In this document: positions 2,051 to 27,650 of the stretch, piece after piece
Layout of the letters: each line of letters starts with the position of its first letter
Numbering within the stretch: the stretch's first letter is position 1
Assembly (NCBI GenBank): GCA_030608565.1
Contig: JAUWDY010000005.1
Span: forward strand, 5,359 to 69,358
DNA from: Candidatus Bathyarchaeota archaeon
GTDB lineage: Archaea; Thermoproteota; Bathyarchaeia; Bathyarchaeales; Bathyarchaeaceae
Direction: 5' to 3'
Length of the DNA: 64,000 bases
The notes under the pieces: generated by a model
The model's database searches: none
What the model was told of the DNA's origin: nothing
The model's input: only the letters and a program-made list of their open reading frames with translations
Translations under genes and position numbers: made by a program

Positions 2051-4396
2051 TTATCTTGGTTGTTTCCGTTTTTTGTACGTGTGGAGTCCTGCTACTGCCA
2101 CGATTCCGCCTAGGCTTAGTAGGCTGAAGGTTTTGCCGTAGTTTCGGCCGATTATATACAGGTCTTTGTTGTCTACTACGCCGTCCATGTTGATGTCACC
2201 ATAAATCCAAGAAGGCTCCTTTATCAGCCATATGCGGACGCGAATGTAGTTCCAGTAGGGGTCGGTTTTGCCGCGATACAGGATGATTGTATTTTTTGTT
2301 AAGCCAGTCATAGTGAAGCCCATCTCAACATCAGTCTTAACCAGCCAAAAATCACCGCCGCCAGCGCCATAGGAGAGGGTGTAGCCCGCTAAAGCATATC
2401 CTCCATCACTCGTCTGAACCACAGAATATGCATAGTCATCGCTTTTCCCTCCATATGTTCGGCTCCACTGCGTGACTCCAAACGCATCAGTTCTAACCAA
2501 CCAGAAATCATAGCCACCAGCACCGGAGGAATTTGTGTAGCCCGCTAAAGCGTATCCTCCATCACTCGTCTGAACCACGGAATGGGCAACGTCGCTACCT
2601 GCTCTTCCGTATGTTTTGTTCCACTGCAAGGTTCCAACCGAATCAGTCTTTACTAGATAGAAATCATTGCTGCTAACACCGTAGGGGCTTGTGTAGCCTG
2701 CCAAGGCGTATCCTCCGTCGCCAGTTTCAATCACAGAAGCGGCAAAGGCGTCGGTTCCGTATGTTTTGTTCCACTGCGGAATACCCCAAATGTCAGTCTT
2801 AAGCAACCAGGAAGGAGCACTGTACGAGAGGAGTTGTCCTGCCATGGCGTATCCTCCGTCACTCGTTTGAATCACTGAAGAGGCAAAGTCATAGCCCATT
2901 CCCCCGAATGTTCGATTCCATTCCATATTGCCAACGGAATCGGTCTTAACAAACCAGAAATTAGAGTAGGTAGGAGTGCCAGTGCCATAGGAGAAGGTGT
3001 AGCCAACTAATGCGTATCCTCTATCAACAGTTTGGACAACAGAAACGGCATAGTCATTGTATGCTCCTCCGTACGTTTTTTTCCACTGCAGGTCTCCAGC
3101 GGAGTCTGTTTTAACCAGCCAAAAATCAGCGTCACCAGCACCAGAAGAATTTGTGTAGCCCGCTAAAGCGTATCCTCCATCACTCGTCCGAATCAAAGAA
3201 TTGACAGCGTCCTCGCTTGCTCCTCCATAAGTTCTGCTCCATCCAACAATGAGATTTACTCCACTGAAATTCCTTCGGTGTCCCACATTCATCTCACCAG
3301 TTATCTTAACCAGCCAGAAATCATTGGAATTAGGAGCGTCAGAAGCATAAAAGTAGGTGTATCCAGCTAACGCATATCCTCCGTCACTCGTCTCAACCAC
3401 AGAATAGGCAAAATCGTTCCACACTCCTCCGTACGCTCGGCTCCACTCCATATTACCAACTCCGTCGGTCTTGACCAGCCAGGAATTAGAGGCGGTAGGA
3501 GTGCCAGTGCCATAGGAGTAGGTGTAGCCAACTAATGCGTATCCTCCGTCACCTGTCTCAACCAAAGAGTAGGCAAAATCATCGCCTACGACTGCGTCTC
3601 CGTAGGTTTTATTCCACTGCGCGTTTCCAGCCAAATCGGTCTTAACAAGCCAGGCAGCAGAACCTGTGGAACCAGTCAAAGCGTAGCCTTCATCACCTGT
3701 CTGAACCAAAGAATAGGCAAAATCATCAGAGCCTGGTCCTGTGTATGCTCGACTCCACTGCATATTGCCCGCAGAGTCAGTCTTAACCAACCAGAAATTG
3801 CGGTATGTAGGAGTGCCAACACCGTAAGAGTAGGTGTAGCCTACCAAGGCGTATCCTCCGTCATCAGCTAGAACCACAGAATAGGCACGATCGCTGTACG
3901 TTCCTCCGTAGGTTCCATTCCACTGCACGTAACCAGCGGAGTCTGTTTTAACCAGCCAAAAATCAGCGTCACCAGCACCATAAGAGCTGGTTAGGCCTGC
4001 TATGGCGTATCCTCCATCACTCGTCTTAACCACAGAACGGGCATAGTCACCGCTTGCTCCTCCATAAGTTCTGGTCCATTCAATTGCGCCACCTATAGGA
4101 TCAAGACTCACTTTTCCACTGACATCCACAACCACATCAGTCGTGTTCAAACCGTGATTCAAAGTCACATACTGCCCACACTTCGTCGTAATGTCCACCC
4201 AGCCACTATCATAGCTCGGCGGATTCGTGAAATGCCCTACAGACTCAGAAGGCGACTCCTGCTGCGGTGCAGGTCCGCTCTCCTCCGCTAATGGCGGCGC
4301 AACCGTTCCAGCCAAGCCGAACACCACAGCAAAGATAGCCAGTAAAACCACTGCAACCAAATACTTACTACTCGCTCTCAAAGAATCTCTCTCCAA
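2051..4396 (-). CDS. Secreted beta-propeller repeat protein (SBBP-like repeats) with a single dockerin-like segment and a C-terminal TM anchor
   Basis: It has an N-terminal signal anchor. About 11 repeats of ~47 aa follow (W-x-[RK]-T-Y-G-G ... D-x-A-x-S-V-[VI]-Q-T-S-D-G-G-Y-A-L-A-G-Y-T ... D-F-W-L-V-K-T-D), spanning nt ~2327-4084. The C-terminus reads YGDINMDGVVDNKDLYIIGRNYGKT and then SLLSLGGIVAVAGLHTYKKRKQPR. Confidence 0.75.
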   Translation of the reverse strand: MERDSLRASSKYLVAVVLLAIFAVVFGLAGTVAPPLAEESGPAPQQESPSESVGHFTNPPSYDSGWVDITTKCGQYVTLNHGLNTTDVVVDVSGKVSLDPIGGAIEWTRTYGGASGDYARSVVKTSDGGYAIAGLTSSYGAGDADFWLVKTDSAGYVQWNGTYGGTYSDRAYSVVLADDGGYALVGYTYSYGVGTPTYRNFWLVKTDSAGNMQWSRAYTGPGSDDFAYSLVQTGDEGYALTGSTGSAAWLVKTDLAGNAQWNKTYGDAVVGDDFAYSLVETGDGGYALVGYTYSYGTGTPTASNSWLVKTDGVGNMEWSRAYGGVWNDFAYSVVETSDGGYALAGYTYFYASDAPNSNDFWLVKITGEMNVGHRRNFSGVNLIVGWSRTYGGASEDAVNSLIRTSDGGYALAGYTNSSGAGDADFWLVKTDSAGDLQWKKTYGGAYNDYAVSVVQTVDRGYALVGYTFSYGTGTPTYSNFWFVKTDSVGNMEWNRTFGGMGYDFASSVIQTSDGGYAMAGQLLSYSAPSWLLKTDIWGIPQWNKTYGTDAFAASVIETGDGGYALAGYTSPYGVSSNDFYLVKTDSVGTLQWNKTYGRAGSDVAHSVVQTSDGGYALAGYTNSSGAGGYDFWLVRTDAFGVTQWSRTYGGKSDDYAYSVVQTSDGGYALAGYTLSYGAGGGDFWLVKTDVEMGFTMTGLTKNTIILYRGKTDPYWNYIRVRIWLIKEPSWIYGDINMDGVVDNKDLYIIGRNYGKTFSLLSLGGIVAVAGLHTYKKRKQPR

Positions 4397-5163: not shown

Positions 5164-6135
5164 TTAGTAGCGCCATGGCCATCCGTGTTTTTCGTATCCC
5201 CACAGTTTGCCGTTTTTGAGGTACCATTGAATCATTTTTTTGATGCCTTCTTCGAATGTTGTTGTGGGTTTCCATTTCAGGAGTTTTTTGGCTTTTCTGT
5301 TTTCGGTGATGAGTGTGTCGACGTCTTTTGGTCTTAATCTGCTCTCCTCAATGACAACTTCTTTTTCTTGGGTGTTTGTTTCTTTTTTTATCAGGTTTAG
5401 TATGTCTTTCATTTTCCATGTTTTGCGTGTTCCGATGTTTATTATTTCGCCTTCTACGTTGGGTGTTTGAAGGGCGGCTATCATCGCCTCTACTGTATCT
5501 TCTACGTAGGTGAAGTCTCGGCTTGTTTCCAGGTTTCCAACATGTATAGTGGGTTCTTTGAGGCATTGTCTTATCATTTCTGGTATGAAGTAGGGTAGGC
5601 TTTCTCGTGGTCCGAAGGTGTTGAAGGGTCGTAGTATGACTACTGGGAGTTTGTGTTCCCAGTGGAGGGTTTGGGCCCACATGTCAGCGGTGGCTTTGGC
5701 TACTGCATATGTGCTATGAGGGTGTAGGGGGTGTTGTTCGTTCATAGGTGTATTTTGCGCGGTGCCGTAGACTTCGCTGCTACTTATGTGAATTAGTCGG
5801 TTGACGTTGTTGTCTAGGCAGGCTTTGAAGATGTTGAGGCTTCCTGTGGCGTTTACTTGTGCCGTTTGGAGTGGCAATTCGTAGCTTAGGGGCACGAAGG
5901 CTTGGGCGGCTAAATGCATTATGTATGGGTGCTTGTGAATTGCTGAGGAGACGGCTTTGAAATCTCTCACATCACCTTGTATGAACCTTAATTTTTTGTT
6001 CTTTGGCAGGTTGTCGCGTAGCCCTGAACTCAAGTCGTCAAAAACTGTTACTTCAAATTGTTCTTTGAGCAGTTTTCGAACTAGGGTGCTGCCTATGAAG
6101 CCTGCTCCCCCGGTTACCAAAACTTTCTTGTCCAT
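5164..6135 (-). CDS. NAD-dependent sugar-nucleotide epimerase/dehydratase (extended SDR, RfbB/GalE/UXS-like)
   Basis: It has the Rossmann motif VTGGAGFIGS and the catalytic S...YxxxK pair (SSSEVYG ... YAVAKATAD). The ~320-aa layout fits an extended SDR. Confidence 0.85.
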   Translation of the reverse strand: MDKKVLVTGGAGFIGSTLVRKLLKEQFEVTVFDDLSSGLRDNLPKNKKLRFIQGDVRDFKAVSSAIHKHPYIMHLAAQAFVPLSYELPLQTAQVNATGSLNIFKACLDNNVNRLIHISSSEVYGTAQNTPMNEQHPLHPHSTYAVAKATADMWAQTLHWEHKLPVVILRPFNTFGPRESLPYFIPEMIRQCLKEPTIHVGNLETSRDFTYVEDTVEAMIAALQTPNVEGEIINIGTRKTWKMKDILNLIKKETNTQEKEVVIEESRLRPKDVDTLITENRKAKKLLKWKPTTTFEEGIKKMIQWYLKNGKLWGYEKHGWPWRY

Positions 6136-6222: not shown

Positions 6223-7086
6223 TCACGTTTGACTGGTTTTCTTGGAGTATAGGTAGAGGAATGTGGTGAGCCATGTGATGAAGATGGCGTATCCTATAAC
6301 GTAGTGGATTTGTCCTCCTACTTCGGCTCCGTAGAAGTAGTCGGTTATGAGTATGATGAGGACTCGCAGAATGTTTAGGACAAGTACTCCTGACACGCCG
6401 ACTAGAGACCATGTTATTTTTGATTTTAGGTTGCCGGGTTCTTCAATTAGCAGAATCACTAATATTATGGAAAAGATTAGGACGCTGGAAATGCCTACAC
6501 AATACCAGTTAAAAACTGCTGTGATCGTTCCTCCTTGTATTGTGGGAAAACTGATTATGGGAAGATGATTTGGGAAGTAAATGGTTGCTTGGACACCAAA
6601 TGCGTTTAGAATGCCTTGTATAAGGTATGCGAATTGAGAAGTTATAAGGGGGGAGAGATGGGGCTCTAACCATTCTGAAATGAAGGAACTTGAGGTTGCG
6701 GCTATGATTAGAAATATGGATGAAGACGTTTCTTTTAGGGCTGAAGCTTCGAAGAATGTGAGGCATAATCCAAGAAGGTAGATGGCGTAGTTTGCTGCTG
6801 TATAGAAGCTGGCAGAAGGGAAAAACGGGACTAATGCGTAATAGATGAAAAAACTTCCGATTACTATAAGGAGGCCTAAGGCTTTTTGTATGGGTTTCGC
6901 CGGGTGACAAAGCTGTAGCTTTTGTTTTTTGATTAGAAGGAGAATGAAACCGTATATGGGGATGATTATGGCGAATGGCCATACGATGTGGTAGTATGTG
7001 AGCAGTAGGAACGGGATGAAAGCCAGTAGGTAGAAGGTGTTGATTCTCTCTTTGAATGTGGACAGAATTGTGTGGAATTTCAACAT
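6223..7086 (-). CDS. Archaeosortase/exosortase-family transpeptidase (polytopic membrane protein)
   Basis: The 287-aa product has ~8 hydrophobic helices. Candidate Cys/Arg/His residues occur in the order and context of exosortase/archaeosortase families: FNWYCVGISS ... LNILRVLI ... IHYVIGY. The gene is embedded in a glycan cluster. Confidence 0.65.
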   Translation of the reverse strand: MLKFHTILSTFKERINTFYLLAFIPFLLLTYYHIVWPFAIIIPIYGFILLLIKKQKLQLCHPAKPIQKALGLLIVIGSFFIYYALVPFFPSASFYTAANYAIYLLGLCLTFFEASALKETSSSIFLIIAATSSSFISEWLEPHLSPLITSQFAYLIQGILNAFGVQATIYFPNHLPIISFPTIQGGTITAVFNWYCVGISSVLIFSIILVILLIEEPGNLKSKITWSLVGVSGVLVLNILRVLIILITDYFYGAEVGGQIHYVIGYAIFITWLTTFLYLYSKKTSQT

Positions 7087-7101: not shown

Positions 7102-8217
7102 CTAAGGTTTGGTCAATGCTTTCCTTAGTGTGGATGCCATGTACTCCAGTTCGCTTTGGGTGAGTTGGGGAGAGTTTGAGACGTAAAAGCCGTTTTGGTT
7201 GGCTTCTTGGGCCACCGGACACTCGTTGATGTTGTATCCAAGGTGTTGGTAGGGTGGTTGTGTTGGTATAAAGGATAAGAGAGGTCTGGTTTCGATTCCT
7301 TGGTTTTCTAGGTATTCAACGGCTTTCTCTTTCTGTTTTCTTCTTTTCGTGATGATGTGATAGACGTAGTATACGTTGAAGGCGTAGCTTTTTGTGGTTG
7401 GCAATTTTACTTCCAAATCATTGAGTTGTTTGTTGAGGTATTCAACGTTTTTTCTCCTTTTTTGAATGTACGTATCCAGCTTTCGCATCTGCACGATGCC
7501 TATTGCTGCGTGGATATCAGACATTTTATAGTTGTAACCCAAGATTGGATGATGGAATTTACGGTGTCTGTCCATCCCATGATTTCGAAGCACCCGCATT
7601 TTTTCAGCTAGTTCTTTATCGCTTGTGAGTACGATGCCTCCTTCTCCTGTGGTGATCATTTTGTCTCCATAGAAGCTGAAGCAGGCGATGTGTCCGAGGG
7701 ATCCTGTCTTTCTGCCTTTGTATTTTGCTCCGAGAGCGTGAGCCGCATCTTCAACTACGTAAATGCCGTGTTTTTCAGCGGTCTCCATGATGGGGTCCAT
7801 GTCAATGGGATGACCAAACATATGGACTGGTAGTATGGCTTTTGTTCTTTTAGTGATCTTTTTTTCGACGATGGATGGGTTGACGTTTAGGGTTGTGGGT
7901 TCCACATCTGCGAATACTGGTTTTGCGTGGAGGTAGAGTATGGGGTTGGCAGTGGATACGCAAGATAGGGGCGTGGTTACCACTTCGTTGTCGTTTTGTA
8001 CGCCGATGGCGGCTAATGCTGTGTGGAGAGCGGTTGTTCCGCTTGTGGTGGCTATTCCGTATTTGGCATCGCAGTAGTTGGCGAATGATTTTTCAAATTC
8101 CTCAACTTTTTTGCCTTGTGTTATCCACCCGCTTTTCATCGTTTTTACTACCGCTTCTATTTCCTTAGTTCCTATGTCGGGTTTTGCGATTGGTATTTTC
8201 ACGTTAGGGTTCCTCAC
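7102..8217 (-). CDS. DegT/DnrJ/EryC1/StrS-family PLP-dependent sugar aminotransferase
   Basis: Motifs seen: GWITQGKKVEEFE, TSGTTALH, the PLP-lysine box FSFYGDKMITTGEGG, and LRNHG. The 371-aa length fits the family. Confidence 0.85.
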   Translation of the reverse strand: MRNPNVKIPIAKPDIGTKEIEAVVKTMKSGWITQGKKVEEFEKSFANYCDAKYGIATTSGTTALHTALAAIGVQNDNEVVTTPLSCVSTANPILYLHAKPVFADVEPTTLNVNPSIVEKKITKRTKAILPVHMFGHPIDMDPIMETAEKHGIYVVEDAAHALGAKYKGRKTGSLGHIACFSFYGDKMITTGEGGIVLTSDKELAEKMRVLRNHGMDRHRKFHHPILGYNYKMSDIHAAIGIVQMRKLDTYIQKRRKNVEYLNKQLNDLEVKLPTTKSYAFNVYYVYHIITKRRKQKEKAVEYLENQGIETRPLLSFIPTQPPYQHLGYNINECPVAQEANQNGFYVSNSPQLTQSELEYMASTLRKALTKP

Positions 8218-9323
8218 AACAGTGATTGATAAATGGCTTCCATCTTGTCAACGCATTTTTCCCATGAGGCTTTTTGCTTGACTATGTGAATGCATCGTTC
8301 GCCGAAATGCTTTCTAGTATCCTCATTCTCTATAAGCTGTATTATTTTTTCTGCTAGCATTTGGGAGTTTCGTGGTGGAAATAGAAAGCCGTTTGTTCCA
8401 TTTTCTATCCATTCTCTGTTTCCAGATATATCAGTGACTATTGGCGCAACACCGCAAGCCATGGCTTCTAAGAGGGAAACGGAAGTGGAGTCGATGAAGG
8501 GTGTGGAGACGTAGATGTCGGATGCAGCGAGATATTGTGCTACTTCAGGATGAGGGACTAACCCTACGAAGCGTACATGTTCACTAACACCTAATGCATC
8601 AACCAGATTTCGCAACTTACTTTCCAATGGTCCTACACCTTTGATTATGAATTTGACGTTTCCACATTTTTCTAATACGATCGGAATAGAGTGAAGTAAG
8701 CATTCTACATTGTAATGATCATTAAAGAGGGCCCTCGTGCTTATTATCACAGTGTCGTTTTCTTTGATCCCTAGTTTTCTCCGCACATTGGACCCATCTA
8801 CATCTGGACCAAAGATGTTGAGATCAACCCCGAACGGTATTACTTCAATTTTGTCTTGGGGAACCCCCGTTCTCATCCATATGTCTTTGAGGCAGTGAGC
8901 ATCCACTATAATCCGATGGGCCTTCATGCTTGTCATTCTTGCTAGGCTTCTTGTGAGAATATCGGCATCTGGAAGCGATAGTACTTCAGCACCCCAAGAG
9001 GTTAATATGTATGGGTGGCCGCTTAGGACGATAGGCAAACTATAATGGTGTTGAACGTGAAGGTGAATGAAGTCTGGGTTGACCCGTTTGAGAATTCTTA
9101 CGATTCTTAAGCTGTTAGGTATGAATTGTTGTGCAAAATTGGCTTTACGTAATGTTGGGAGAGCATACGCTTGTATGGACTTTGTTTTGGGAGCAACCCA
9201 GGCTCGGCTATCAGTTATTAACGATACGCTGTAGCCTCGTTGAACGAACGCCTTCATCCATCGGTGGGCGTGGATGGAAAGAGGGCTCACGTGGCACACT
9301 GTTGCCTTCGTCAAATGATCCAA
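8214..9323 (-). CDS. Glycosyltransferase, GT-B fold, family 4-like
   Basis: The C-terminal half shows the Glycos_transf_1 pattern with E-x7-E (SLLEAMACGVAPIVTDISGNREWIENGTNGFL). There is a 4-nt overlap with the downstream gene. Confidence 0.8.
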   Translation of the reverse strand: MDHLTKATVCHVSPLSIHAHRWMKAFVQRGYSVSLITDSRAWVAPKTKSIQAYALPTLRKANFAQQFIPNSLRIVRILKRVNPDFIHLHVQHHYSLPIVLSGHPYILTSWGAEVLSLPDADILTRSLARMTSMKAHRIIVDAHCLKDIWMRTGVPQDKIEVIPFGVDLNIFGPDVDGSNVRRKLGIKENDTVIISTRALFNDHYNVECLLHSIPIVLEKCGNVKFIIKGVGPLESKLRNLVDALGVSEHVRFVGLVPHPEVAQYLAASDIYVSTPFIDSTSVSLLEAMACGVAPIVTDISGNREWIENGTNGFLFPPRNSQMLAEKIIQLIENEDTRKHFGERCIHIVKQKASWEKCVDKMEAIYQSLL

Positions 9324-9413
9324 CCTTAACTCGAAGCTACGGTGATATAATCATAGTATGGTGAACCTCGTAGTTCTTAAAAATTATAGCATAACTGAGT
9401 AGTTGCATGTCTT

Positions 9414-11351
9414 TCAGGTAGATGTGCTCCTCTTATAGTGGAAAATGCAAAGTTTTTCTTTGTCTTTATAATCGAAGACCTGATAGGTTTCAAGATTGTT
9501 TTGTTGGGCTTGTGATTTTATGCGGTTGTATTCGTCTGTGCCTAGTCTTGGTTTTTCTATGATGAAGTAGGCGGTGGTGGCGTTGTTGATTTCCATGGCT
9601 TCAATTAGGGTTTCGTTTGAAGGATTGTGTTTCATTTTAATAAATAGCGTTACTCCGTGTGGATCTGCAGGGGAGAAGTAGAAGGCACGTTGATTTTTGA
9701 TTCCGACGAACATTATTCCAGCGAATATCATCCATTGGTCACAGATAACGATGTATGTTCCGTTTGTGGTTTCGTCTATGTATTTTGCGGCTTCGAGTTC
9801 GTATGAAGTTGTCTGTAAGGGACCCCAATGTGGATAGGCATAGTATACTGAGGCTGTAACCCAGCCAGAAACGATTGTGAAAACTAAGATGTACGCTGAA
9901 ACTGACCGCAAGTTTGCACTGCTAACAAGGTGACTTCGCGTGAATACTGAAGATACTTTGGAGAACATACGTGCGAAGAATGTTTTGCGTAAAAATGCTA
10001 TGGTGTTTTTGGGCAAGGTGATGAAGAGGTCCTGCATTTTCTGGATACCAGATCCAATGATTAGGGCTGTGAATGAGACGAGGAGAAAGTCTCTGAAGAG
10101 CCAAAGTCTTTCAAACTCAAGGAAAGGAACGTTTACCATGAATAGTTTCACGATTCTGTCGTCAATTATGATCATAAGCAATCCTAGAGAGAGAAGCAAC
10201 ATAGGTGGTTTGATGCTTCTCTTTGGTGATTTTTTTACACTTCTTATTAGAACATATGTTAATGCGATGAGGCCGAGAAGGGTGGGTGCCCCGAAAATCA
10301 GTGTGGTGATATATGCCTCGCGTGATATAAGGTCGAAGTAGCTTCCGAACAGGAGAGACAAGACCATCTCTATAGGTGAGTATTCGTAAAGTTTTTGTAT
10401 ACTGAAATATGTGTTTGCCGTAGGGAAGAAAAATCGGCGGTAAACTAAAGTAAAAGGCATGATGCTAATACAGAAGATGAAAGACAGAAGCAACACTAAT
10501 CTTGCACTTATTGGCGAATCCCATTTTTGTTTTTCATAGGTTTTGACGCTGTACGCTAGTATGAGGATGGAAAATGCTATGACCCCAGCTAAGTAGTGAG
10601 ACACGAATGAGACGAAAAAGAACGCTGCAACGAGGAAAAGGTCTTTTACTTCATTGGACTTCATATATTTCAAGAAAAAACATATGAACCCGAAGAAAAA
10701 AAGGTAGCTTAAACCGTTTGGGATAGATACTGCACCCCAAATAATGTTGGCTGGAAATAACGAGACTATAAGACCTGATAGTGCCGAAATGTTCTCGCTT
10801 CCGCCTAATGCTCTGGAGGTCATGAAAGCTATTATGGGAACAAATATTCCCCATAATAGCGGCAAAAGCAAGAGGTGTGTCCAATAAACGTCAATGCCAA
10901 GCATGCGAGCGAAAACCACGCTGAAGGACGCTTGAAAGTTTTCTCCTCTAAGCGAGACGTATAATTGCGAGGGAAGACTCCCTCGAGCCCAGCCGAGTCC
11001 ATGGAAAATTATGTTGTCAAAGACGAGTCGTGTCTGGCCTAACATTGTTTGTTGTGTGCCCACATTACCGGCAGGAAACATGATTACCATGAAGGAGTGA
11101 GAAATAATCGAGTGGAGAATTGTGAACAAGAGCTTGTATTCAATTTTTTCAACAGAGAGAATTATGGTCATTAAGAGAAAAGTTGCGATGATAAAGGTTG
11201 GCAGGAATGCCGGGTTGATGACGCCCCATACAGTGTATATCTCACCGGCACGCGATAGGTAAAGCAGGTAAAGTGAGAGAGTTATGGCGATTAGGTATAG
11301 TAGTCTGGCTATATGTAGTTGGGTAGGGCGTTTTTTTTCATTTGGCGGCAT
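9414..11351 (-). CDS. Large polytopic membrane protein with a C-terminal soluble domain; candidate glycan polymerase/GT-C-like enzyme (function unproven)
   Basis: The 645-aa product has >12 hydrophobic helices and then a ~160-aa soluble tail. It is paralogous to 13764..17303 (DVYWTHLLLLPLLWGIFVPI vs DMYWTYVFLVPVLWGIFVPV; ELEAAKYIDETTNGTYIV vs ALEVEVVKYIDEHTSSQYVV). No STT3 WWDYG motif was seen. Confidence 0.6.
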   Translation of the reverse strand: MPPNEKKRPTQLHIARLLYLIAITLSLYLLYLSRAGEIYTVWGVINPAFLPTFIIATFLLMTIILSVEKIEYKLLFTILHSIISHSFMVIMFPAGNVGTQQTMLGQTRLVFDNIIFHGLGWARGSLPSQLYVSLRGENFQASFSVVFARMLGIDVYWTHLLLLPLLWGIFVPIIAFMTSRALGGSENISALSGLIVSLFPANIIWGAVSIPNGLSYLFFFGFICFFLKYMKSNEVKDLFLVAAFFFVSFVSHYLAGVIAFSILILAYSVKTYEKQKWDSPISARLVLLLSFIFCISIMPFTLVYRRFFFPTANTYFSIQKLYEYSPIEMVLSLLFGSYFDLISREAYITTLIFGAPTLLGLIALTYVLIRSVKKSPKRSIKPPMLLLSLGLLMIIIDDRIVKLFMVNVPFLEFERLWLFRDFLLVSFTALIIGSGIQKMQDLFITLPKNTIAFLRKTFFARMFSKVSSVFTRSHLVSSANLRSVSAYILVFTIVSGWVTASVYYAYPHWGPLQTTSYELEAAKYIDETTNGTYIVICDQWMIFAGIMFVGIKNQRAFYFSPADPHGVTLFIKMKHNPSNETLIEAMEINNATTAYFIIEKPRLGTDEYNRIKSQAQQNNLETYQVFDYKDKEKLCIFHYKRSTST

Positions 11352-11727
11352 TTTTGGATTTCATCCCTTTGTTTAGGACTGAAGCGATGAAAGTTGTGAT
11401 ACAGAGAACTATTGCTGATCGTAGATTGTCGAGGTTGTAGATTATCATAACTGCCAATCCGGTTAGGCCTAGGATCACAATGAGAAGTAGGGTTCCTAAG
11501 AGGAGTTTTACAAGGAGGTTTTCGTTTTGAAAGAGGGCCATTCCAATGAAAGTTGAGTTTATTAGGAAGTATATGATGGTAGCTGGCACTCCTATAATTG
11601 GTGTAGAAGTGAGGTTTAGGTTTATGAAGATCATGAGGATGGATATGTAGGAGAGCATGGTGAAGGAGAGCTTTTTATCTAGTGTTATTGATTGTATTAG
11701 ATTTGTGAATAGAGATTTGTGTTCCAA
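11338..11727 (-). CDS. Small 4-helix membrane protein, homologous to the N-terminal region of the 1179-aa membrane protein (split-gene partner of 9414..11351)
   Basis: IFINLNLTSTPIIGVPATIIYFL...LLLIVILGLTGLAVMIIYNLD aligns by eye with IFANSLTLNSPFVGLFALMVYLG...FVFLVVLALAGILAVFVLQSE in 13764..17303. It overlaps the start of 9414..11351 by 14 nt. Confidence 0.55.
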   Translation of the reverse strand: MEHKSLFTNLIQSITLDKKLSFTMLSYISILMIFINLNLTSTPIIGVPATIIYFLINSTFIGMALFQNENLLVKLLLGTLLLIVILGLTGLAVMIIYNLDNLRSAIVLCITTFIASVLNKGMKSKNAAK

Positions 11728-13763: not shown

Positions 13764-16700
13764 TCACTCAATTGCATCGGGTATTCCGTCTCGATCCAGA
13801 TCTGTTGTCGTTTCTACTTCTTTTCTGCCAAAAAGCGATAATTGTGCGTCAGGTGGCAGAGTTATGAGAAGTGAAGTCATCTCGCCATATTCATTTTCTA
13901 CTACTATAAGTGACGATGGCTTCTCCGTCGCTTCTAAGCCCCCAACATACTCTGAGCCGCCATAGTTATAAAATGTAACCAAACTTCTATTCATGTTCCG
14001 TAGTCCATAGTCAATATCATCAGAATCTCTAAAAACATAACTCATCTCTAGCGGTTGGATATACCAAGCTGAGCAACCTAGCCTCACAAGAATCTTGTCT
14101 TTTTCGGGCAGATAGAAACCAAAGAACATTCGGTTCTGTGCGCCTCCTGAATATGTATAGTAATCTGGGAGACTGGGGGAGCCACCATCAGCCTCTTCAA
14201 AAGACCACCACTTGACCGGAGTTTCGCTTAGAGTTTTCGGTTTTGTAAACACCCAGTTAACGTCATCCCCGCCAAGTGTCCGTATAGCCTGGCTACCACC
14301 CGTTTCTACATTATATATTGTGTTGATCCAAGTTTTTCCGTTATCTATGCTATGACGTAGAGGTGGGAATGCCCCCGCGTAAACTTCATCGGGAAGCCAC
14401 ACTTCAACATAAGCCCACTGACTTCTATTCGCGGTGTTTTCGAGGTACAAGTCATACCGGAAATGTCCTTGCTCGCGAGTGAAATTGCAGTATTTCACAA
14501 TTTCATCATAGGTAAGAGAAGAGCTGCCAAGGCTTTGATTCAGAAGAGGTTGAAGCACAATGTTGTCTGTACGGCTCTGGGTGTAGAGGAATCCGTAGTT
14601 TCGAGAATTCACGTCATAGGAATCTTGGCCACCAACCAAGCCCGGGATGTAAAGTCGTCGGAAATCTCCGATTCTTAGGCTCCAGGTAGATTCTTGACCA
14701 ACTTCCCACTGTAGTTTGACAGAAGGGCTACCACTCTCAACAGCACCAATTAGAGAACTGTTTTCAAAATGCAGCCTGAACTGGAACCGTTCGCTGGGGA
14801 CCAACTCAGTTTCACGAGTCCATTCAATCCACCTGCTATTTGTGTAGTTGAAATATTCGATTGAAGTCAGGGTTCCTACGGGATTTCCATCAACAAATGT
14901 GGCATTGAAGTTCACGCTTTCGTAGAGGTCGCCCCAGAAGTCAACTATATCAAGAGTCCCAGTCTCTTGATTAATCATGACCCTCAGCAAATCGTTTTGC
15001 ACATAATAGGCAGCCGGAGTCTCCCAATAGAAAGCAGCTACGTCAGATCCTGTGGGCAAAGGTGGAATCTTGTAGTAGAAAACGTATAGTTCATTACCAC
15101 TATCATCTCTGAACTCTTTGTACAGACCGAACACTCTGGATGCTTGGCTCACAATCCGATCAAAGTCGACCCCCAATCTAAACGACGGTGCAATAAAATA
15201 TCCGATGTCTGCCCCACCCATCTCCATATATTCAAACATCTCTCTGGCTGAAGGCTCTACAGGGCCCCCTCTACCGACAGTAAAATACCATTTTTCAGGG
15301 TTGGGAATACCTAAAAATCCCCAACTGATCACAGTGGTGGCCTGTGGGGCCAGCACAACATACTGACTGCTCGTATGCTCGTCAATGTATTTCACGACCT
15401 CTACCTCAAGAGCCGTTGGCAACAGACCCTTTGTATAGTAATCATAGGTTTCGTAAGTTGACGCAACAACCCAAGCAGACAGCGAAACACATATCAATGT
15501 TCCCCCAAGAAACTTCTTCCTCGACAAAACCAGACTTCCTTTCGAGGTTGCGACAGTACCAACTATAAAAAAGATGGCAGACGCCACAACTAGAGCGGCA
15601 AACGGGAGGGCAAGCATATCTATGAATACTCTCAATCTGTCCGCCGAGAATAGACCACCCACGACAGCATACTTCAAAATCCTATGCTCAGCCAAGAGCG
15701 CCATGAAAGCCAGAAACAGGAACTTGCAAAATGTCCTATTGAATCTCTTCTTGCTTTTCAGAACATATACTAGTCCTATCAAACCGAGAACAGGATAGAT
15801 CTCATATAACACGGCATTAAGAACTGGGAGGTCTTCGGGTATTCCGAAAATTAGTGCCCAGGGGCTCGTTTCAAGAAGTTTACTAAGGCTGAATGCAGAG
15901 GTTCCTAGCATGGGGAGAAGTATACCCCTCAATATAACCAGAGAAGGCACTATGAATAGTGAAACAAGAAATGAAATAGCGAGCAAAGCGTAACTCGTTC
16001 TCGGATACTTGATCTTGAAGCGTCTGTTTCCTTTAAATCCAAAAGCCAGCACAAGGAGAGAGAGAGAAACAAGTGCAGGCACAAAGTGCGTGACCCCAAT
16101 AGCCACCAGCATCACCATAATCAGAAAATATATTCTCTTAGTTTTGCGTGTTGAGAACGAAAGCAAGAGTAAGTAGAGGAATAAGAAAAAGAAAAGAACA
16201 CCCAGAGAGTTAGCTTCTGTCAGTTTTCCCCAAGCTAAGAAATAGAGATTGGGGATTGATAGAAACGCCACTAGAATGGATGATCTTCTGGTCAGTCCTA
16301 CCATCTCAGCTATTCTATACGAAGTTACGGGGACGAATATTCCCCACAACACGGGCACTAGGAACACATAAGTCCAATACATGTCAACGCTCAGAGCGCC
16401 AGCGAAGGTTGCAATGAGTACGTGCTCAGTCACGCCTCTGAGAAACATGTTCAACAATCGGACAAGTGTTAATGTTGCTGGAGATGCCCAAAACACAGAT
16501 ATGGATCCTTGCGACGCTGTCTGCCAAACAAGCTGCACAACTGTCAATATTGTTCTTGCTCTACCCAAGTCGTACCATGGATCGTAGAAGATTATGCCTG
16601 GATACGAAACAATAACAATAAACAAGAGAGAAAAGATGGAGTGGATAATGGTGGCAAACAATTTCGTTCTAATCTTCCCGGGCACAAGAAGAAGCCATAC

Positions 16701-17303
16701 AAGAAAAGCTGTGGCAACGAAGTAGACTCTTAAGAAGGCAGGAGGTATGACATTCCATATAGGTCCTCTAACCCATCCAGATCTCACGCTGAACAAGAGA
16801 TAAAGGCCCCAGAGAAGCAAAACAAAGTAGATGCCCCAAAAGACATATGAAACATCAAAAGACAACTTCTTCCTCCAATTCTCCTTCACTTCAACCCTCT
16901 CATATCTCACAAAAAACAAGCTCAAGATAGAAGAGAAGCTAGTTGCGAGAACCATCCCTAACATATACCACAACTCACTCTGTAGAACAAAAACCGCCAA
17001 AATCCCAGCCAAGGCTAACACAACTAGAAAAACAAACAAACCAAAAACTATTCTGAAGAAGGGTTTCTCCTCCGAAAAGAAAACTCGACCCAAAACATCC
17101 CCATTCATGCCCAAATACACCATTAACGCAAAAAGCCCAACAAAAGGAGAGTTCAACGTAAGCGAGTTGGCGAAAATCAGAAGAACGGCTGCAAGAGGAA
17201 TAACTGTGAGAACGAGTCTTCGGTCCCTAACTATTCTCTCAAACATCTTCCAAACTCGTAGCCCAAATCTCCGAATACACGACACCATGGTGACCATTCT
17301 CAC
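13764..17303 (-). CDS. Giant (1179 aa) polytopic membrane protein with a ~480-aa extracytoplasmic C-terminal region; fused paralog of 11338..11727 + 9414..11351
   Basis: The first ~640 aa contain ~18 hydrophobic helices, followed by a long soluble region rich in N-x-S/T sequons. The protein ends DLDRDGIPDAIE. The start is a GTG in a GTGA overlap with the upstream stop. Paralogy motifs are listed under 9414..11351 and 11338..11727. Confidence 0.65.
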   Translation of the reverse strand: MRMVTMVSCIRRFGLRVWKMFERIVRDRRLVLTVIPLAAVLLIFANSLTLNSPFVGLFALMVYLGMNGDVLGRVFFSEEKPFFRIVFGLFVFLVVLALAGILAVFVLQSELWYMLGMVLATSFSSILSLFFVRYERVEVKENWRKKLSFDVSYVFWGIYFVLLLWGLYLLFSVRSGWVRGPIWNVIPPAFLRVYFVATAFLVWLLLVPGKIRTKLFATIIHSIFSLLFIVIVSYPGIIFYDPWYDLGRARTILTVVQLVWQTASQGSISVFWASPATLTLVRLLNMFLRGVTEHVLIATFAGALSVDMYWTYVFLVPVLWGIFVPVTSYRIAEMVGLTRRSSILVAFLSIPNLYFLAWGKLTEANSLGVLFFFLFLYLLLLSFSTRKTKRIYFLIMVMLVAIGVTHFVPALVSLSLLVLAFGFKGNRRFKIKYPRTSYALLAISFLVSLFIVPSLVILRGILLPMLGTSAFSLSKLLETSPWALIFGIPEDLPVLNAVLYEIYPVLGLIGLVYVLKSKKRFNRTFCKFLFLAFMALLAEHRILKYAVVGGLFSADRLRVFIDMLALPFAALVVASAIFFIVGTVATSKGSLVLSRKKFLGGTLICVSLSAWVVASTYETYDYYTKGLLPTALEVEVVKYIDEHTSSQYVVLAPQATTVISWGFLGIPNPEKWYFTVGRGGPVEPSAREMFEYMEMGGADIGYFIAPSFRLGVDFDRIVSQASRVFGLYKEFRDDSGNELYVFYYKIPPLPTGSDVAAFYWETPAAYYVQNDLLRVMINQETGTLDIVDFWGDLYESVNFNATFVDGNPVGTLTSIEYFNYTNSRWIEWTRETELVPSERFQFRLHFENSSLIGAVESGSPSVKLQWEVGQESTWSLRIGDFRRLYIPGLVGGQDSYDVNSRNYGFLYTQSRTDNIVLQPLLNQSLGSSSLTYDEIVKYCNFTREQGHFRYDLYLENTANRSQWAYVEVWLPDEVYAGAFPPLRHSIDNGKTWINTIYNVETGGSQAIRTLGGDDVNWVFTKPKTLSETPVKWWSFEEADGGSPSLPDYYTYSGGAQNRMFFGFYLPEKDKILVRLGCSAWYIQPLEMSYVFRDSDDIDYGLRNMNRSLVTFYNYGGSEYVGGLEATEKPSSLIVVENEYGEMTSLLITLPPDAQLSLFGRKEVETTTDLDRDGIPDAIE

Positions 17304-18466
17304 AATTCGTCCTCAACATACTTGTATCGAGACTTTCTGTATCTCTGCATCTCATAAACCTTCTGAAGGCCATCAGTTAGGAAGGAGGGAAACGTAGCAC
17401 TACTCACAAACATATAGTTATACCGCGACATTAGCCATTGTAGAAACTTTCCTGAACGAGAAAGCCCTAGAGTATAAACCCTCATAGGGCGCTCCTCAAA
17501 GCCATGCTCAAACTTAAACCTTCTCAGCGACCTATGAAGACTCGGTTTATCAGCCTCATAGCTTACTCTATCAAAAGAATAGTATATCCAAGCGAAACCG
17601 CCACCACAAGCATGACGAATCAAATACTCCAGCAACGCGTCATTAGGACACTTGGGCATTGACTCAGACAACGACATCATCAGCATCAATAGAATAAGCT
17701 CGTTGAACTCTAACGTTGCCGAATAAGCTATCAATCGCCCACGAAAGAATGCGCCATAAATCCTGAAGCTTTCTCCCAAGAGTTCTTTATGCTTATTCAA
17801 ATAGACCAAAAAAGCGTCCTCATCTGAATGTGGATAGCGAGGATAACGTCTCTGCCGAAGAAAAGACGACATGTTGCACAGATACATGTCAGATATCCAC
17901 TTCTCATAGGACTTAATTTCACGTACAGACACCCCCTCTTTTTCAGCCTTCCTTGTTCTATTCCTAGCATGTTTGGAAAAGCCCGTCTTCCAGATCTCTT
18001 CAAACGGTTTTCTATCACTATTAAGAACATCCATAAAGAGCGGCTGAACAGAAGCATTCCTCTTCTCAAGCCAAATATCCATGAGACGCTCATACCTTTT
18101 GGGAAGAAGAAAAGGAGCGCTTATCGTCAACAAATCGACATGATTCTCCTTCAGGGTATTTACAACCGAATCAAGCGCCTCAGGTATCATAGAAATAGCT
18201 TCAGGGCTATTAGGAAGAACAGAAGCGATGTCGTAGACAGGAACCGTGACCGATCTCAAACCAAACGATCTTTCCAAAGTAAATGGAAAAAGGAGACGGT
18301 TTTTCCCTTTCTCAAAGACCAATGGTAGAACATGTTTACCACTAAAGGATAGCACTTCATATTTGTGATGAGAAACTGCGTAGGGACTCGCTTGCACCAT
18401 CTTGTTCCACACAAGGGGGTTTCTTTCGACATAAAGTCTCATAATCACCACACACCCGTGTAGCAT
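17300..18466 (-). CDS. FemAB/CelD-like GNAT-fold (aminoacyl/acyl)transferase, divergent copy
   Basis: The central box FSKHARNRTRKAEKEGVSVREI matches LNKRARWGVRKAERVGLKVKV and LDKKCRNAIRKAMKSGVRIKEV in the two clearer paralogs. The probable start is the ATG at 18466, in a TAATG overlap with the upstream stop. The track ORF extends to 18523. Confidence 0.55.
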   Translation of the reverse strand: MLHGCVVIMRLYVERNPLVWNKMVQASPYAVSHHKYEVLSFSGKHVLPLVFEKGKNRLLFPFTLERSFGLRSVTVPVYDIASVLPNSPEAISMIPEALDSVVNTLKENHVDLLTISAPFLLPKRYERLMDIWLEKRNASVQPLFMDVLNSDRKPFEEIWKTGFSKHARNRTRKAEKEGVSVREIKSYEKWISDMYLCNMSSFLRQRRYPRYPHSDEDAFLVYLNKHKELLGESFRIYGAFFRGRLIAYSATLEFNELILLMLMMSLSESMPKCPNDALLEYLIRHACGGGFAWIYYSFDRVSYEADKPSLHRSLRRFKFEHGFEERPMRVYTLGLSRSGKFLQWLMSRYNYMFVSSATFPSFLTDGLQKVYEMQRYRKSRYKYVEDEL

Positions 18467-19698
18467 TAAACTATGGAGTTTAGCACTTCTTCTAACCTCA
18501 TGATTAAAACGTCCCAACTGCACATCTTCTCAATGTAGCTTCGGGCGTTGCGTGCAATCGATTGGGAGAAACTCTTGTCTCTAATTACCTTGAGAATAGC
18601 TGAAGAGAGCCCATTAATGTCGCCAGGTTCTACGCGCACTCCAGTATAACCATCAACAATAATGCTTTCTGAAACCGCACCACGACAGACTACGACTGGT
18701 TTCTCGCACGCCATGTATTCCAAAACGGTTAGAGGAGTGGAACCGTAGATTGTTGGGTAGGAGGTCGTAGACAGAGGACCAATTGTAACATCTGCCAAGG
18801 ATATCAACTCTGGAACAGATGAATGTTCCACACTATCTACAAATTTTACAAAATCGCTCACGCCTAAGCGCTCTGCTAGAGATGTCAACTTTGGCTGTTC
18901 AGGTCCTTCACCTACGAACAACATCACTAAATCCTTCATTTCCTTTATAATCTGAGGTAACGCTTTAATCAGTAATTCTGGATGCCTTTGTCTATAAAGA
19001 CCGCCGAGAAACAGCACAACAGTTTTATTTTCTAAGTCTAATCTTTTGCGAAGTTCATCGCATTTTATGCCGGGTTTGAAAAGTTTTGTATCTACGCCGT
19101 TCGGAAAAACTACTAGCCTTCTGTCCTCTATCCTGCCTTCTCTCTTTATAACGTCTCTTAACTCTGGACTTTGCACCAAAATGGGGCTGTCACCTCTTTT
19201 CAATACTTCCACGTTTATTTTGCCTAATGCTAAGTGATAGAGTCTTTTCAGTTTTTGGGGTTCGATGGTTTCAACTATGAAGTCGTAAATCTTCACAACT
19301 AATGGTATTTTCAGAATGCGACACAGGAGATATGCAGAAACTGTGGCTAAGTGGGTGGGATGATACATGGATATTATTGCGTCGAATTTCTCAGCGGTTC
19401 GGCTCTGATTTAGAAGTAGGGCATTCGCGATTAGTGGAACATGAGCAATTGTGTGGGTGAATAATGTTGTAAAGCCATCATACCACTGTGTAGTCAGTGG
19501 TGGAATTGGAAGCGAATTAATGATTTGAAGGTTGTTCGCTTTTTCTCTATATATTCTTGCGGTTCCGGGACAGTCAGCAGAGACAACGGTCACTGTGTGG
19601 CCTCTCTGGGCAAGTCTTCTGACGATTTCATATGTGGTAACTGTAGAGGCGTGAGTTGGTTCTGTTGAGAAGTATTGCGTTACGTAAAGCAGTTTCAT
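18466..19698 (-). CDS. Glycosyltransferase, GT-B fold, family 4-like
   Basis: The N-terminus MKLLYVTQYFSTEP...RLAQRGHTVTVV is typical of GT4. The C-terminal pattern is LTVLEYMACEKPVVVCRGAVSESIIVDGYTGVRVEPGD. Confidence 0.8.
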   Translation of the reverse strand: MKLLYVTQYFSTEPTHASTVTTYEIVRRLAQRGHTVTVVSADCPGTARIYREKANNLQIINSLPIPPLTTQWYDGFTTLFTHTIAHVPLIANALLLNQSRTAEKFDAIISMYHPTHLATVSAYLLCRILKIPLVVKIYDFIVETIEPQKLKRLYHLALGKINVEVLKRGDSPILVQSPELRDVIKREGRIEDRRLVVFPNGVDTKLFKPGIKCDELRKRLDLENKTVVLFLGGLYRQRHPELLIKALPQIIKEMKDLVMLFVGEGPEQPKLTSLAERLGVSDFVKFVDSVEHSSVPELISLADVTIGPLSTTSYPTIYGSTPLTVLEYMACEKPVVVCRGAVSESIIVDGYTGVRVEPGDINGLSSAILKVIRDKSFSQSIARNARSYIEKMCSWDVLIMRLEEVLNSIV

Positions 19699-20687
19699 TC
19701 GTTGTACCCTCTCGGCAACTCAGACATCGTTTTGACCACGAGTTTGCTTTCGTCTCTTTTACTCTTAACGTACGAAAGAACTTTCTCGAAGTTTGAAAAA
19801 AAATTTCCGTTCGCACCAAAGTCTCTAAGATGCGTATACATCGTGAAAACTTTTCCTTTTTGTATGGCCTTGTTTATTCCTTGTATTGCTTTGAATGTCA
19901 CTAATTTGAGTGGAATCATCGGCTTTTTGCCGTAAGCTAGGCATCCTGGTGTGCCAACAAGCCCATGAAGGGTCTCTTTTGGAGTTACAACGTGTGGAGG
20001 AAAAAGAAAGTAATAGGACAAAAGTTGCAGTGCTAGAGAGGAGTAGGTTTTCAGGTAGTTAGAGGGTGTCTTTTCTAATTTTGTACACGGGTACAGTTTT
20101 GGGGGCACATCTCTGAATGAGACAAAACCGTGTTTTTTTAACTCATCCAAATGTCCTACATAGTCTCTGGGAAAAGCAAAGGTTTTCGGAGAAATGTTGT
20201 ATTCGGCTTTCATGAGGTCTATACATTTGGTTATTTCCGCTTTTGCTAACTCCTCTGTACATTCAGGGTCTCCAAATTGTTGATGAGAGAAGGAGTGGCA
20301 CCCAATCTCGTGATGAACCTTGCTTCTTCTAACGTAATGGACGATTTTGTCCACAATGTCTTTGCCGTACCACGCAGGGTCTTCATTAACGTTTGTGCAA
20401 GGATCATATTTGTACCAGTCGCCGTTTAACCAAGAATATTTCGGATGCGGCATGTCAGAGTGAGGCAGTTCATTTGGGTTTTCTTTGCTGCACTGGTTTA
20501 AAATGAGATGCCCCAATATGTTCCATGTAGCAGCAACTTCGTAGTTTTCAAGTAAGGCAAAAACATTGTTTATGGCTTTCCTAACGTTTATCGAAATGCT
20601 TGTCACTTTTGTTAGATCGATTTTCTTTCTGTGTACAAAGGCCCATGCTAATTCTACGTCTATGCTTAGTGAAAAAACTCCTGGCAT
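19695..20687 (-). CDS. Polysaccharide deacetylase-like (CE4/NodB-related) protein, divergent
   Basis: Motifs seen: SLSIDVE (variant of motif 1), ATWNILGH, and HEIGCHSFSHQQF (metal-binding H-x-x-x-H-type motif). Confidence 0.6.
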   Translation of the reverse strand: MPGVFSLSIDVELAWAFVHRKKIDLTKVTSISINVRKAINNVFALLENYEVAATWNILGHLILNQCSKENPNELPHSDMPHPKYSWLNGDWYKYDPCTNVNEDPAWYGKDIVDKIVHYVRRSKVHHEIGCHSFSHQQFGDPECTEELAKAEITKCIDLMKAEYNISPKTFAFPRDYVGHLDELKKHGFVSFRDVPPKLYPCTKLEKTPSNYLKTYSSLALQLLSYYFLFPPHVVTPKETLHGLVGTPGCLAYGKKPMIPLKLVTFKAIQGINKAIQKGKVFTMYTHLRDFGANGNFFSNFEKVLSYVKSKRDESKLVVKTMSELPRGYNE

Positions 20688-20709
20688 GTTCTCACAGCGG
20701 TTTGTGTGT

Positions 20710-21741: not shown

Positions 21742-21750
21742 AACTTCACC

Positions 21751-22263
21751 TCAACTGACACTCGTTCTCTGACGAACCAATCCAACAACACTCATTAATA
21801 ATAAGACAATGCGATGTAAGAAACTTCCTGGCAATCTAGAACATAGTTCATGCAAAAAAGTATACACAAGTTTACCTTTAACATTCAACGGAATCATCAT
21901 AAGTACATAACCAAAATCTCTAAACTGTACAACTTCTCTGTACCCTACCTTTGAGGCTACATGTAAAGCTGGCAAATTCCAAAGATGTATGGCTCCAGCC
22001 ACGAAGTCCAGACCTCGTCTACGTGCTTCACTATAAGTTTTCGCCTCAAGTTTTGTGCCCAACCCTCTGCCACGATATTCTTCCTTTAGATAAGCTAGAG
22101 CGTAGTTAGATATTTTTGCAATACTACAACCACCTACTACCTTATTATCACTCGTAACACAAATAACCAATATTTGAGAGGATGAAAACGCATCCTTATA
22201 CTTCTTAGGGAACGTTTCAAGTTTATCTCTTAACTGTTCCCCACTACCTACAATAAATTTCAT
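21751..22263 (-). CDS. GNAT-family N-acetyltransferase with a hydrophobic C-terminal extension
   Basis: The acetyl-CoA-binding motif is EEYRGRGLGTKLEAK. It is paralogous to 24430..24963, sharing GEQLR, YRGRGLG, MMIPLN.KG and a C-terminal ...F/LH..CS.LP..FL.R tail. Confidence 0.7.
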   Translation of the reverse strand: MKFIVGSGEQLRDKLETFPKKYKDAFSSSQILVICVTSDNKVVGGCSIAKISNYALAYLKEEYRGRGLGTKLEAKTYSEARRRGLDFVAGAIHLWNLPALHVASKVGYREVVQFRDFGYVLMMIPLNVKGKLVYTFLHELCSRLPGSFLHRIVLLLMSVVGLVRQRTSVS

Positions 22264-22342
22264 GCAAGTCTTCCCTTCAGCCGTTCAGCTCACTTGAGAC
22301 AAAAATCATTCGCATCCACCAATCAATTAACAACCCGAACAT

Positions 22343-23317: not shown

Positions 23318-23341
23318 TTTTCGCCCTCCATCCGGACACTT

Positions 23342-25823: not shown

Positions 25824-25848
25824 TACTCTTAACCACTAGTTTCCACTT

Positions 25849-26856: not shown

Positions 26857-26865
26857 CGCCTCAAA

Positions 26866-27636: not shown

Positions 27637-27650
27637 TTCTAACCCTCAAA

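Follow-up and report, generated by a model that had tools for sequence, protein, structure and literature searches.

Archaeosortase A (ArtA) of Haloferax volcanii, the only archaeosortase studied experimentally, recognizes and proteolytically cleaves a tripartite C-terminal signal, with attachment of a C-terminal lipid, and requires a Cys and an Arg residue for this activity (PMC9263693, PMC6098224, PMC7157517). Its critical residues are Cys173, Arg214 and Arg253 (PMC9263693), and in the proposed mechanism a thioester on the Cys is resolved by an amine nucleophile, archaetidylethanolamine (PMC7157517). A second subfamily, archaeosortase C (ArtC), is paired with the PEF-CTERM signal (PMC5244752). 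Here we analyse a 64,000-nt stretch of a Candidatus Bathyarchaeota genome (assembly GCA_030608565.1, contig JAUWDY010000005.1, positions 5,359 to 69,358; hereafter the window) that carries an archaeosortase-family gene at 6223..7086 on the reverse strand. Bathyarchaeia are abundant sediment archaea whose cell surface is very little known, and in the literature that we searched no study connects archaeosortases with this lineage or with its cohesin anchors. An earlier note made from the sequence had proposed that the gene encodes an archaeosortase acting on three cohesin proteins of the same window. We observe that the gene product belongs to the family and keeps its conserved residues, that its gene order is conserved, and that a PEFPxG tail is conserved on one of the cohesin proteins and co-located with the enzyme gene. 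We consider it fairly probable that the protein is an archaeosortase that trims and re-anchors PEFPxG-tailed surface proteins, including this one.

A Bathyarchaeia clade of the exosortase/archaeosortase superfamily

The gene and the codons of its predicted active residues are as follows.
6223..7086, reverse strand: archaeosortase-family gene of a Bathyarchaeia-specific clade, 287 residues with about eight transmembrane helices (PF09721, TIGR04178, homologues, AlphaFold2)
6499..6501, reverse strand: codon of Cys196, the predicted catalytic nucleophile (context FNWYCVGISS)
6364..6366, reverse strand: codon of Arg241, in an N-x-x-R motif (context LNILRVLI)
6304..6306, reverse strand: codon of His261 (context IHYVIGY)

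The open reading frame begins with ATG, 12 nt downstream of a GAGG-like ribosome-binding site that lies within the 15-nt gap to the stop codon of the upstream gene. A search with exosortase and archaeosortase profile hidden Markov models (HMMs), which the earlier note had called for, returned Pfam PF09721 (Exosortase_EpsH; 49.6 bits against a cutoff of 25.7, E = 4.5e-13, residues 38–280) and NCBIfam TIGR04178 (44.6 bits against a cutoff of 23, E = 1.3e-11, residues 194–280). The family match is far above chance and, judged by its sequence, the product is a member of the exosortase/archaeosortase superfamily. Every named NCBIfam subfamily model that it matched scored below cutoff, namely exosortase X (28 bits against 170), ArtC (TIGR03762; 25.6 against 100), cyanoexosortase C (22.6 against 225) and ArtF (21 against 150). 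ArtC is thus the top named archaeosortase subfamily, slightly under exosortase X. In the same NCBIfam scan the models for ArtA and thaumarchaeosortase (TIGR04297) gave no match at E ≤ 10, and the model for exosortase A (XrtA) was likewise unmatched.

A word-indexed search returned 158 homologues, the closest at 94% identity. Only a few are assigned to a named organism, in each case Bathyarchaeota or Candidatus Bathyarchaeum, and several homologues are already annotated as exosortase/archaeosortase family proteins. A scan of genome contigs found a single locus, in Candidatus Bathyarchaeum sp. E44_bin4, again at 94% identity, and a tblastn search of plasmids with an acidic, possibly haloarchaeal relative gave no match. 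We also built a profile from 32 family sequences and ran it exhaustively with HMMER over 1.84 billion representatives. Among the 478 matches, full-length family clusters score 226–454 bits and the next full-length proteins at most 94 bits; this gap in score marks the sortase family as a discrete clade. We scanned 20 of the next-scoring outgroup proteins with NCBIfam and found that ArtC is the best named subfamily for most of them, with highest scores of 96.6, 87.6 and 85.9 bits against the cutoff of 100; no ArtA-type protein occurs among these 20 neighbours. So far the clade is known from Bathyarchaeia only, and its nearest named subfamily is ArtC. A second copy of the sortase is ruled out in the loci examined, as the family HMM finds one copy in the window and one in each related locus.

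The three sequence contexts that the earlier note had singled out are present, holding Cys196, Arg241 and His261. These three residues and Asn238 are invariant among 32 family members. We aligned the query and 14 family members with 74 distant members of the superfamily, in which the columns of Asn238, Arg241 and His261 are conserved in 74 of 74 sequences and the column of Cys196 holds 67 Cys and 7 Ser. The Cys-45-Arg-20-His spacing is near-invariant across the aligned sample. Column conservation and spacing together therefore identify the proposed residues as the signature residues of the superfamily. The seven sequences with Ser in place of the catalytic Cys (P0177, P0188, P0204, P0213, P0234, P0248 and P0253) share a W-P-S-x-G context and keep the Arg and His, and may represent a Ser-nucleophile or inactive clade.

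The AlphaFold2 model is confident and nearly all-helical (predicted local distance difference test score 83.9, predicted template modelling score 0.71), with a small beta region at residues 168–191. Its helices are compatible with an eight-transmembrane topology in which both termini lie inside, in agreement with the roughly eight helices first proposed. A Kyte–Doolittle count gave only four segments and was dropped; the topology is instead read from the AlphaFold2 helices together with the distribution of charges. In this topology 13 of the 14 Lys and Arg residues fall in predicted cytoplasmic segments, as the positive-inside rule expects, and the sole exception is Arg241. Cys196 and His261 are predicted at the outer ends of neighbouring helices with Arg241 toward the outside, a modelled site that would coincide with the expected position of the motif of a C-terminally anchored exported protein. 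The sortase has no sequence match in the Protein Data Bank (PDB), and Foldseek returned no structural match to the model at E ≤ 0.001.

The PEFPxG tail and candidate substrates of the enzyme

One secreted protein of the window stands out as a candidate substrate.
44949..46091, reverse strand: strongest substrate candidate, a secreted protein of 380 residues with a single cohesin domain (Pfam Cohesin, 35.5 bits against a cutoff of 24.1)
44952..45071, reverse strand: candidate PEFPxG-type C-terminal signal, residues 341–380 of that protein (tail conservation)

This protein begins with a signal-peptide-like N-terminal segment and ends in the tail AVPEFPFGAALEIALIGVIIYIWWSKHKRKQ, comprising VPEFPFG, a transmembrane helix and a basic cluster. 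The PEF tripeptide recurs in the tail of 67 of its 91 homologues, at identities down to about 31%. Among these 67 tails, Pro follows at position +3 in 64 and Gly at +5 in 62, the helix closes on its inner side with an aromatic Y-x-W, and basic residues occupy positions +22 to +26. When the query is aligned with 49 full-length orthologues, the conservation of PEFPFG is 0.90, a value exceeded only by the core motif of the cohesin domain; the domains average 0.62–0.70 and the stretch past the basic cluster 0.23.

The same tail occurs on other proteins (P0334 and P0336), and PEF-only forms occur on P0338, P0339 and P0349. In four related loci (L001, L002, L023 and L045), PEFPxG-tailed open reading frames lie 5–9 kb upstream of the sortase gene, and those of L001, L023 and L045 have otherwise different helices that lack the Glu found in the helix of 44949..46091-type tails. 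Besides the window, one further contig, Ga0209991_10000010 (90 kb, syntenic with the window), encodes both the sortase and a PEF-tailed cohesin protein. A candidate cognate protein with motif, helix and basic cluster is thus encoded on the same contig as the sortase.

Curated sorting-signal models miss this tail. The tails of the window give either matches to many unrelated CTERM models that are driven by the transmembrane helix, or none at all, and the matches of 52707..54011 to PEF-CTERM (TIGR03024; 13.4–16.4 bits against a cutoff of 23) align with the transmembrane and basic part of the model only. Tails of relatives score 8–15 bits against PEF-CTERM, aligned from model position 1 or 2, up to 20.7 bits against PEFG-CTERM (TIGR04296; cutoff 25; P0338, from model position 1) and up to 18.3 bits against Loki-CTERM (cutoff 19.9, from model position 4); PGF-CTERM matched no tail. 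Because these sub-cutoff alignments begin at the start of the PEF models, we conclude that the signal is PEF-like yet missed by existing models. The pairing of ArtC with PEF-CTERM fits the position of the sortase near ArtC.

The earlier note had described several secreted proteins of the window as ending in a transmembrane helix and a basic cluster, and we find five: 44949..46091 and the four below.
52707..54011, reverse strand: Cohesin-PKD-CARDB protein with the tail VVSEPFPTT, a transmembrane helix and RRKRT (Pfam)
49630..52578, reverse strand: Cohesin-PKD-CARDB protein of 982 residues (Pfam)
36765..37898, reverse strand: NosD/beta-helix protein with the tail NVPLWWIP, a transmembrane helix and RYKSSRK, lacking PEF (Pfam and tail reading)
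2051..4396, reverse strand: repeat protein of 781 residues with a dockerin-like segment followed by a transmembrane helix and KKRKQPR, lacking PEF (read from the sequence)

Pfam Cohesin exceeds its gathering score in 44949..46091, 49630..52578 and 52707..54011, the three proteins named earlier as substrates, and these fare differently. The proposal stands for 44949..46091, with its conserved PEF tail (67 of 91 homologues), which is the single clear candidate within the window. For 49630..52578 we reject PEAPFG as a sorting signal: nothing similar occurs in three syntenic orthologues, which read SAPPPSIFFYTTIGL, SSGASLDIFLYATIGL and VPTVNLFLYVTVGL in its place (SAPPPS, SSGASLD and VPTVN), and the protein is probably held by a plain C-terminal transmembrane anchor. 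Syntenic orthologues of 52707..54011 end in AAEAFPIW, ASEPFPTIW and APAPFPLEY, keeping only the F-P pair (EPFP, EAFP, APFP), and its status as a substrate is uncertain. The repeat protein 2051..4396, for which Pfam gives no match, would on its sequence be a membrane-tethered dockerin. A P-L-W motif followed by a transmembrane helix and a basic cluster is common to the NosD-like protein 36765..37898 and to 8516..10609 of locus L049 (FNPLWIWF...), and may define a second tail class.

From the conserved tail and its position near the enzyme gene we infer that the two are partners; cleavage, lipid attachment and the kind of anchor are proposed on the model of Haloferax ArtA. On the same analogy the enzyme may, as the earlier note suggested, be the step that attaches the cohesin–dockerin system to the membrane. 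The enzyme would be a polytopic cysteine transpeptidase or peptidase, in which Cys196, Arg241 and His261 would lie at the outer membrane face, where a protein exported by Sec and held by its C terminus would present its PEF motif. Its most likely substrates would carry (V/I)PEFPxG, a hydrophobic helix that often ends in Y-x-W-W/R, and a Lys/Arg cluster. As proposed for ArtA, the tail would be cut at PEF or close to it, with Cys196 forming a thioester, and the new C terminus would be transferred to an amine-bearing membrane component. Few residues separate the end of the cohesin domain (residue 337) from the start of PEF (residue 341) in 44949..46091, and the processed cohesin module would therefore sit almost directly on the membrane. 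Held on the cell surface, this module could bind the many dockerin-bearing proteins encoded in the window, which comprise NosD-like, S8 protease, BNR-repeat and OppA-like proteins.

Several observations weigh against this assignment. The enzyme attains no subfamily cutoff, and no tail, searched as full protein or in isolation, attains the cutoff of a curated CTERM model. The third critical residue of ArtA is an Arg, whereas the third conserved residue of the Bathyarchaeia clade is a His, His261, and the conserved PEF is missing from two of the three cohesin proteins first proposed as substrates (49630..52578 and 52707..54011). Within the 44949..46091-type tails, the helix is itself well conserved (0.76), a near-invariant Glu lies in it 9 residues after PEF (61 of 67 tails; homologues P0270–P0331), and 8–25 extra, poorly conserved residues follow the basic cluster. 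An intramembrane Glu, a conserved helix and a C-terminal extension are unusual for a segment that is discarded, and would also suit a permanent anchor.

The likeliest alternative, to which these features lend weight, is that the protein is a working archaeosortase whose real substrates, perhaps an S-layer or another envelope protein, are encoded in other parts of the genome, and that 44949..46091 and the other cohesin proteins remain held by their own C-terminal helices. PEFPxG and the intramembrane Glu would then serve membrane packing or binding of a partner. Such an explanation would account for conservation of the whole tail rather than of the motif alone, for a variable extension unlike textbook sorting signals, which stand at the extreme C terminus, and for the unmet curated models; our view is moreover limited to 64 kb of genome. 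It accounts less well for the recurrence of PEFPxG on proteins with differing, Glu-less helices (L001, L023 and L045), for PEFPxG open reading frames within 5–9 kb of the sortase gene on four contigs, and for the fact that ArtC, the nearest named subfamily, is paired with a signal whose hallmark is PEF (PMC5244752). We therefore regard elsewhere-encoded substrates as possible though rather unlikely, and continue to favour an archaeosortase that processes PEFPxG-tailed proteins including 44949..46091.

If this pairing holds, it accounts for the cellular attachment of one cohesin anchor or more, which could in turn retain exo-proteins with dockerin tags, proteases and binding proteins among them. 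Archaeosortase sorting would then extend to Bathyarchaeia with a PEFPxG signal of its own that current annotation models overlook.

Two further proteins of the window deserve mention. The OppA-like solute-binding protein (SBP_bac_5; 57234..59372, reverse strand) matches dockerin weakly at its C terminus (20.3 bits against a gathering score of 22.9) and adjoins Opp permease and ATPase genes (59549..63946, forward strand); the same arrangement has been reported in anaerobic methanotrophic (ANME) archaea (PMC9012536). A secreted protein of 1351 residues (40819..44874, reverse strand) combines ten InlB B-repeat (Flg_new_2) units, one cohesin and a C-terminal FIMAH domain, with neither dockerin nor transmembrane tail, and its counterparts adjoin the PEF-tailed cohesin gene in loci L047, L049 and L050.

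A conserved glycan locus and a possible attachment target

The sortase gene lies in a glycan gene cluster that spans about 5.1–31.6 kb of the window, between a sugar aminotransferase gene and a sugar dehydratase gene, as first described.
7102..8217, reverse strand: DegT/DnrJ/EryC1 sugar aminotransferase, directly upstream of the sortase (PF01041, 402.9 bits)
5164..6135, reverse strand: SDR sugar 4,6-dehydratase/epimerase, downstream of the sortase (PF16363, 254.5 bits)
8214..11727, reverse strand: GT4 glycosyltransferase, PMT_2-like GT-C glycosyltransferase and small membrane protein, upstream and in the same orientation as the sortase (Pfam)
17300..31649, reverse strand: remaining glycan cluster with FemAB-like proteins, GNATs, polysaccharide deacetylases, glycosyltransferases, a second DegT and a second SDR (NCBIfam)
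23342..24463, reverse strand: full-length match to the XrtA/PEP-CTERM-associated FemAB family (TIGR03019, 192.5 bits against a cutoff of 260)
24960..25823, reverse strand: match to the XrtA system polysaccharide deacetylase (TIGR03006, 149.6 bits against a cutoff of 276)
18466..19698, reverse strand: GT4 match (TIGR04063, 124.1 bits against a cutoff of 442)

To the adjacent genes, NCBIfam assigns top matches under their cutoffs: LegC/PseC type for the aminotransferase (about 310 bits) and LegB for the dehydratase (252.8 bits against 475). The GT4 gene within 8214..11727 has as its top match TIGR04063, the PEP-CTERM/XrtA system glycosyltransferase, at 128.6 bits against 442. TIGR03019, TIGR03006 and TIGR04063 are the top NCBIfam matches of their cluster genes, every one below cutoff. 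With all underlying matches at this sub-cutoff level, the sortase locus resembles bacterial XrtA/PEP-CTERM exopolysaccharide loci, and the earlier remark that exosortase genes sit in exopolysaccharide loci fits it in some detail.

Of 52 related loci that we fetched, 43 have a usable sortase match, and 30 of these extend for 400 bp or more upstream of it. The aminotransferase gene is the immediate upstream neighbour of the sortase gene, on the same strand, in 26 of the 30, and the adjacency persists where the sortase is only 48–54% identical to the query, bearing out the proposed link to a glycan locus as deeply conserved. In the four exceptions a GT-C gene stands beside the sortase, and one of these, L052, still has an aminotransferase fragment. 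The nearest outgroup examined shows no context of this kind. The dehydratase was rejected as a conserved partner, being adjacent in 4 of 34 loci, all in the close clade of the window. The aminotransferase and sortase genes are probably co-transcribed. Because the sortase is probably co-transcribed with the aminotransferase inside a surface-glycan locus of XrtA/PEP-CTERM-like make-up, glycan synthesis and protein sorting are probably coupled.

The GT-C and small-protein genes accompany the sortase gene in L003, L004, L006, L007, L033, L037, L038 and L052; the pair occurs with the sortase in more divergent loci, and in L003 the small membrane protein is fused with the GT-C in one gene. In the window, the GT-C-like membrane proteins 9414..11351 (645 residues) and 13764..17303 (1179 residues) and the small membrane protein 11338..11727 (129 residues), all on the reverse strand, have no NCBIfam match. 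Elsewhere in the cluster, also on the reverse strand, tandem pairs of a FemAB-like and a GNAT gene lie at 20710..22263 and 23342..24963, a third FemAB-like open reading frame at 17300..18523, and three to four polysaccharide deacetylases within 17300..27636.

This gene context raises a second alternative, which concerns the acceptor: the acyl-enzyme thioester may be resolved on an amino sugar of a polyprenyl-linked, lipid-linked or polymeric surface glycan, leaving PEFPxG proteins bound covalently to glycan rather than to phospholipid. The tight, deeply conserved aminotransferase–sortase pair (26 of 30 loci, 15-nt gap in the window), the adjoining PMT_2-like GT-C genes of more divergent loci, and a cluster that includes FemAB-like proteins and several deacetylases, which would free amines, are consistent with such a model. 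There is also a precedent, in that synteny of artA with genes for an amine nucleophile led to the discovery of its dependence on PssA and PssD (PMC7157517). The proposal draws on gene context, however; bacterial exosortase genes occupy exopolysaccharide loci without any demonstrated glycan attachment, and the aminotransferase may merely supply sugar for glycosylating the sorted proteins. We hold a glycan acceptor to be doubtful. Were it correct, the system would be an archaeal counterpart of sortase A joining proteins to lipid II, and would provide the first defined acceptor for an exosortase-type enzyme in a glycan locus.

That the protein lost or never had peptidase activity, and is instead a membrane component of glycan assembly or export whose residues serve other chemistry, would suit the conserved operon link to sugar-modifying genes, the lack of any solved exosortase structure (no PDB match by sequence or fold) and the statement in a 2018 review that exosortases themselves had not yet been analysed experimentally (PMC6098224), but is very improbable given a Cys, Arg and His signature strictly kept with its spacing and a matching tripartite signal on nearby genes.

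Relation to described sorting systems

Our analysis adds a lineage-specific archaeosortase clade with its own PEF-type signal to a family already known at the level of superfamily annotation; the type of system is not new. In practice it would lead to two new HMMs, covering the enzyme clade and the signal respectively, for better prediction of surface proteomes in Bathyarchaeia genomes, and the conserved aminotransferase operon offers a handle on the old question of the attachment target of exosortase-type enzymes in glycan loci.

The closest described system is ArtC (TIGR03762) with PEF-CTERM (TIGR03024), predicted in Euryarchaeota such as ANME-2 and Methanosarcinales. The two enzymes belong to one superfamily and share the Cys/Arg/His signature, and the candidate signal described here opens with the same P-E-F, followed by a helix and a basic cluster. 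They differ in that the Bathyarchaeia enzyme scores only 25.6 bits against the ArtC cutoff of 100, that its motif is the longer PEFPxG with a helix whose inner end often reads Y-x-W-W/R, that its host belongs to the Thermoproteati rather than the Euryarchaeota, and that its gene is fixed beside a DegT aminotransferase.

ArtA with PGF-CTERM, also of this superfamily, serves as the mechanistic template for the sortase. By contrast with the PEF signal here, the ArtA signal is PGF; the genomic partners of ArtA in Methanosarcina are pssA and pssD rather than a sugar aminotransferase, and its third critical residue is Arg253, whereas the third conserved residue of the Bathyarchaeia clade is His261. 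Thaumarchaeosortase (TIGR04297) with PEFG-CTERM, from the sister lineage Nitrososphaeria of the same kingdom, likewise uses a PEF-based signal; the enzyme described here does not match its model, and the signal scores below cutoff.

Bacterial exosortase A (XrtA/EpsH) with PEP-CTERM resembles the present system in genomic setting, as both sortase genes lie within a glycan locus. Accessory-like FemAB, deacetylase and GT4 genes are present here, all at sub-cutoff scores, whereas XrtA itself is unmatched, the signal is of PEF rather than PEP type, and the host is an archaeon without an outer membrane.

In architecture, the proposed system resembles the sortase-anchored scaffoldins of bacterial cellulosomes, in which a cohesin anchor is fixed to the cell surface by a C-terminal sorting signal for dockerin assembly (PMC9012536), as we propose here. 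The enzymes are unrelated in fold, a class A sortase there and a polytopic archaeosortase here. The signals also differ, LPXTG as opposed to PEFPxG, as do the acceptors, peptidoglycan in the bacterial system and, putatively, an archaeal membrane or glycan component in Bathyarchaeia. Finally, the dockerin partners encoded in the window are proteases and beta-helix, BNR and solute-binding proteins instead of cellulases.

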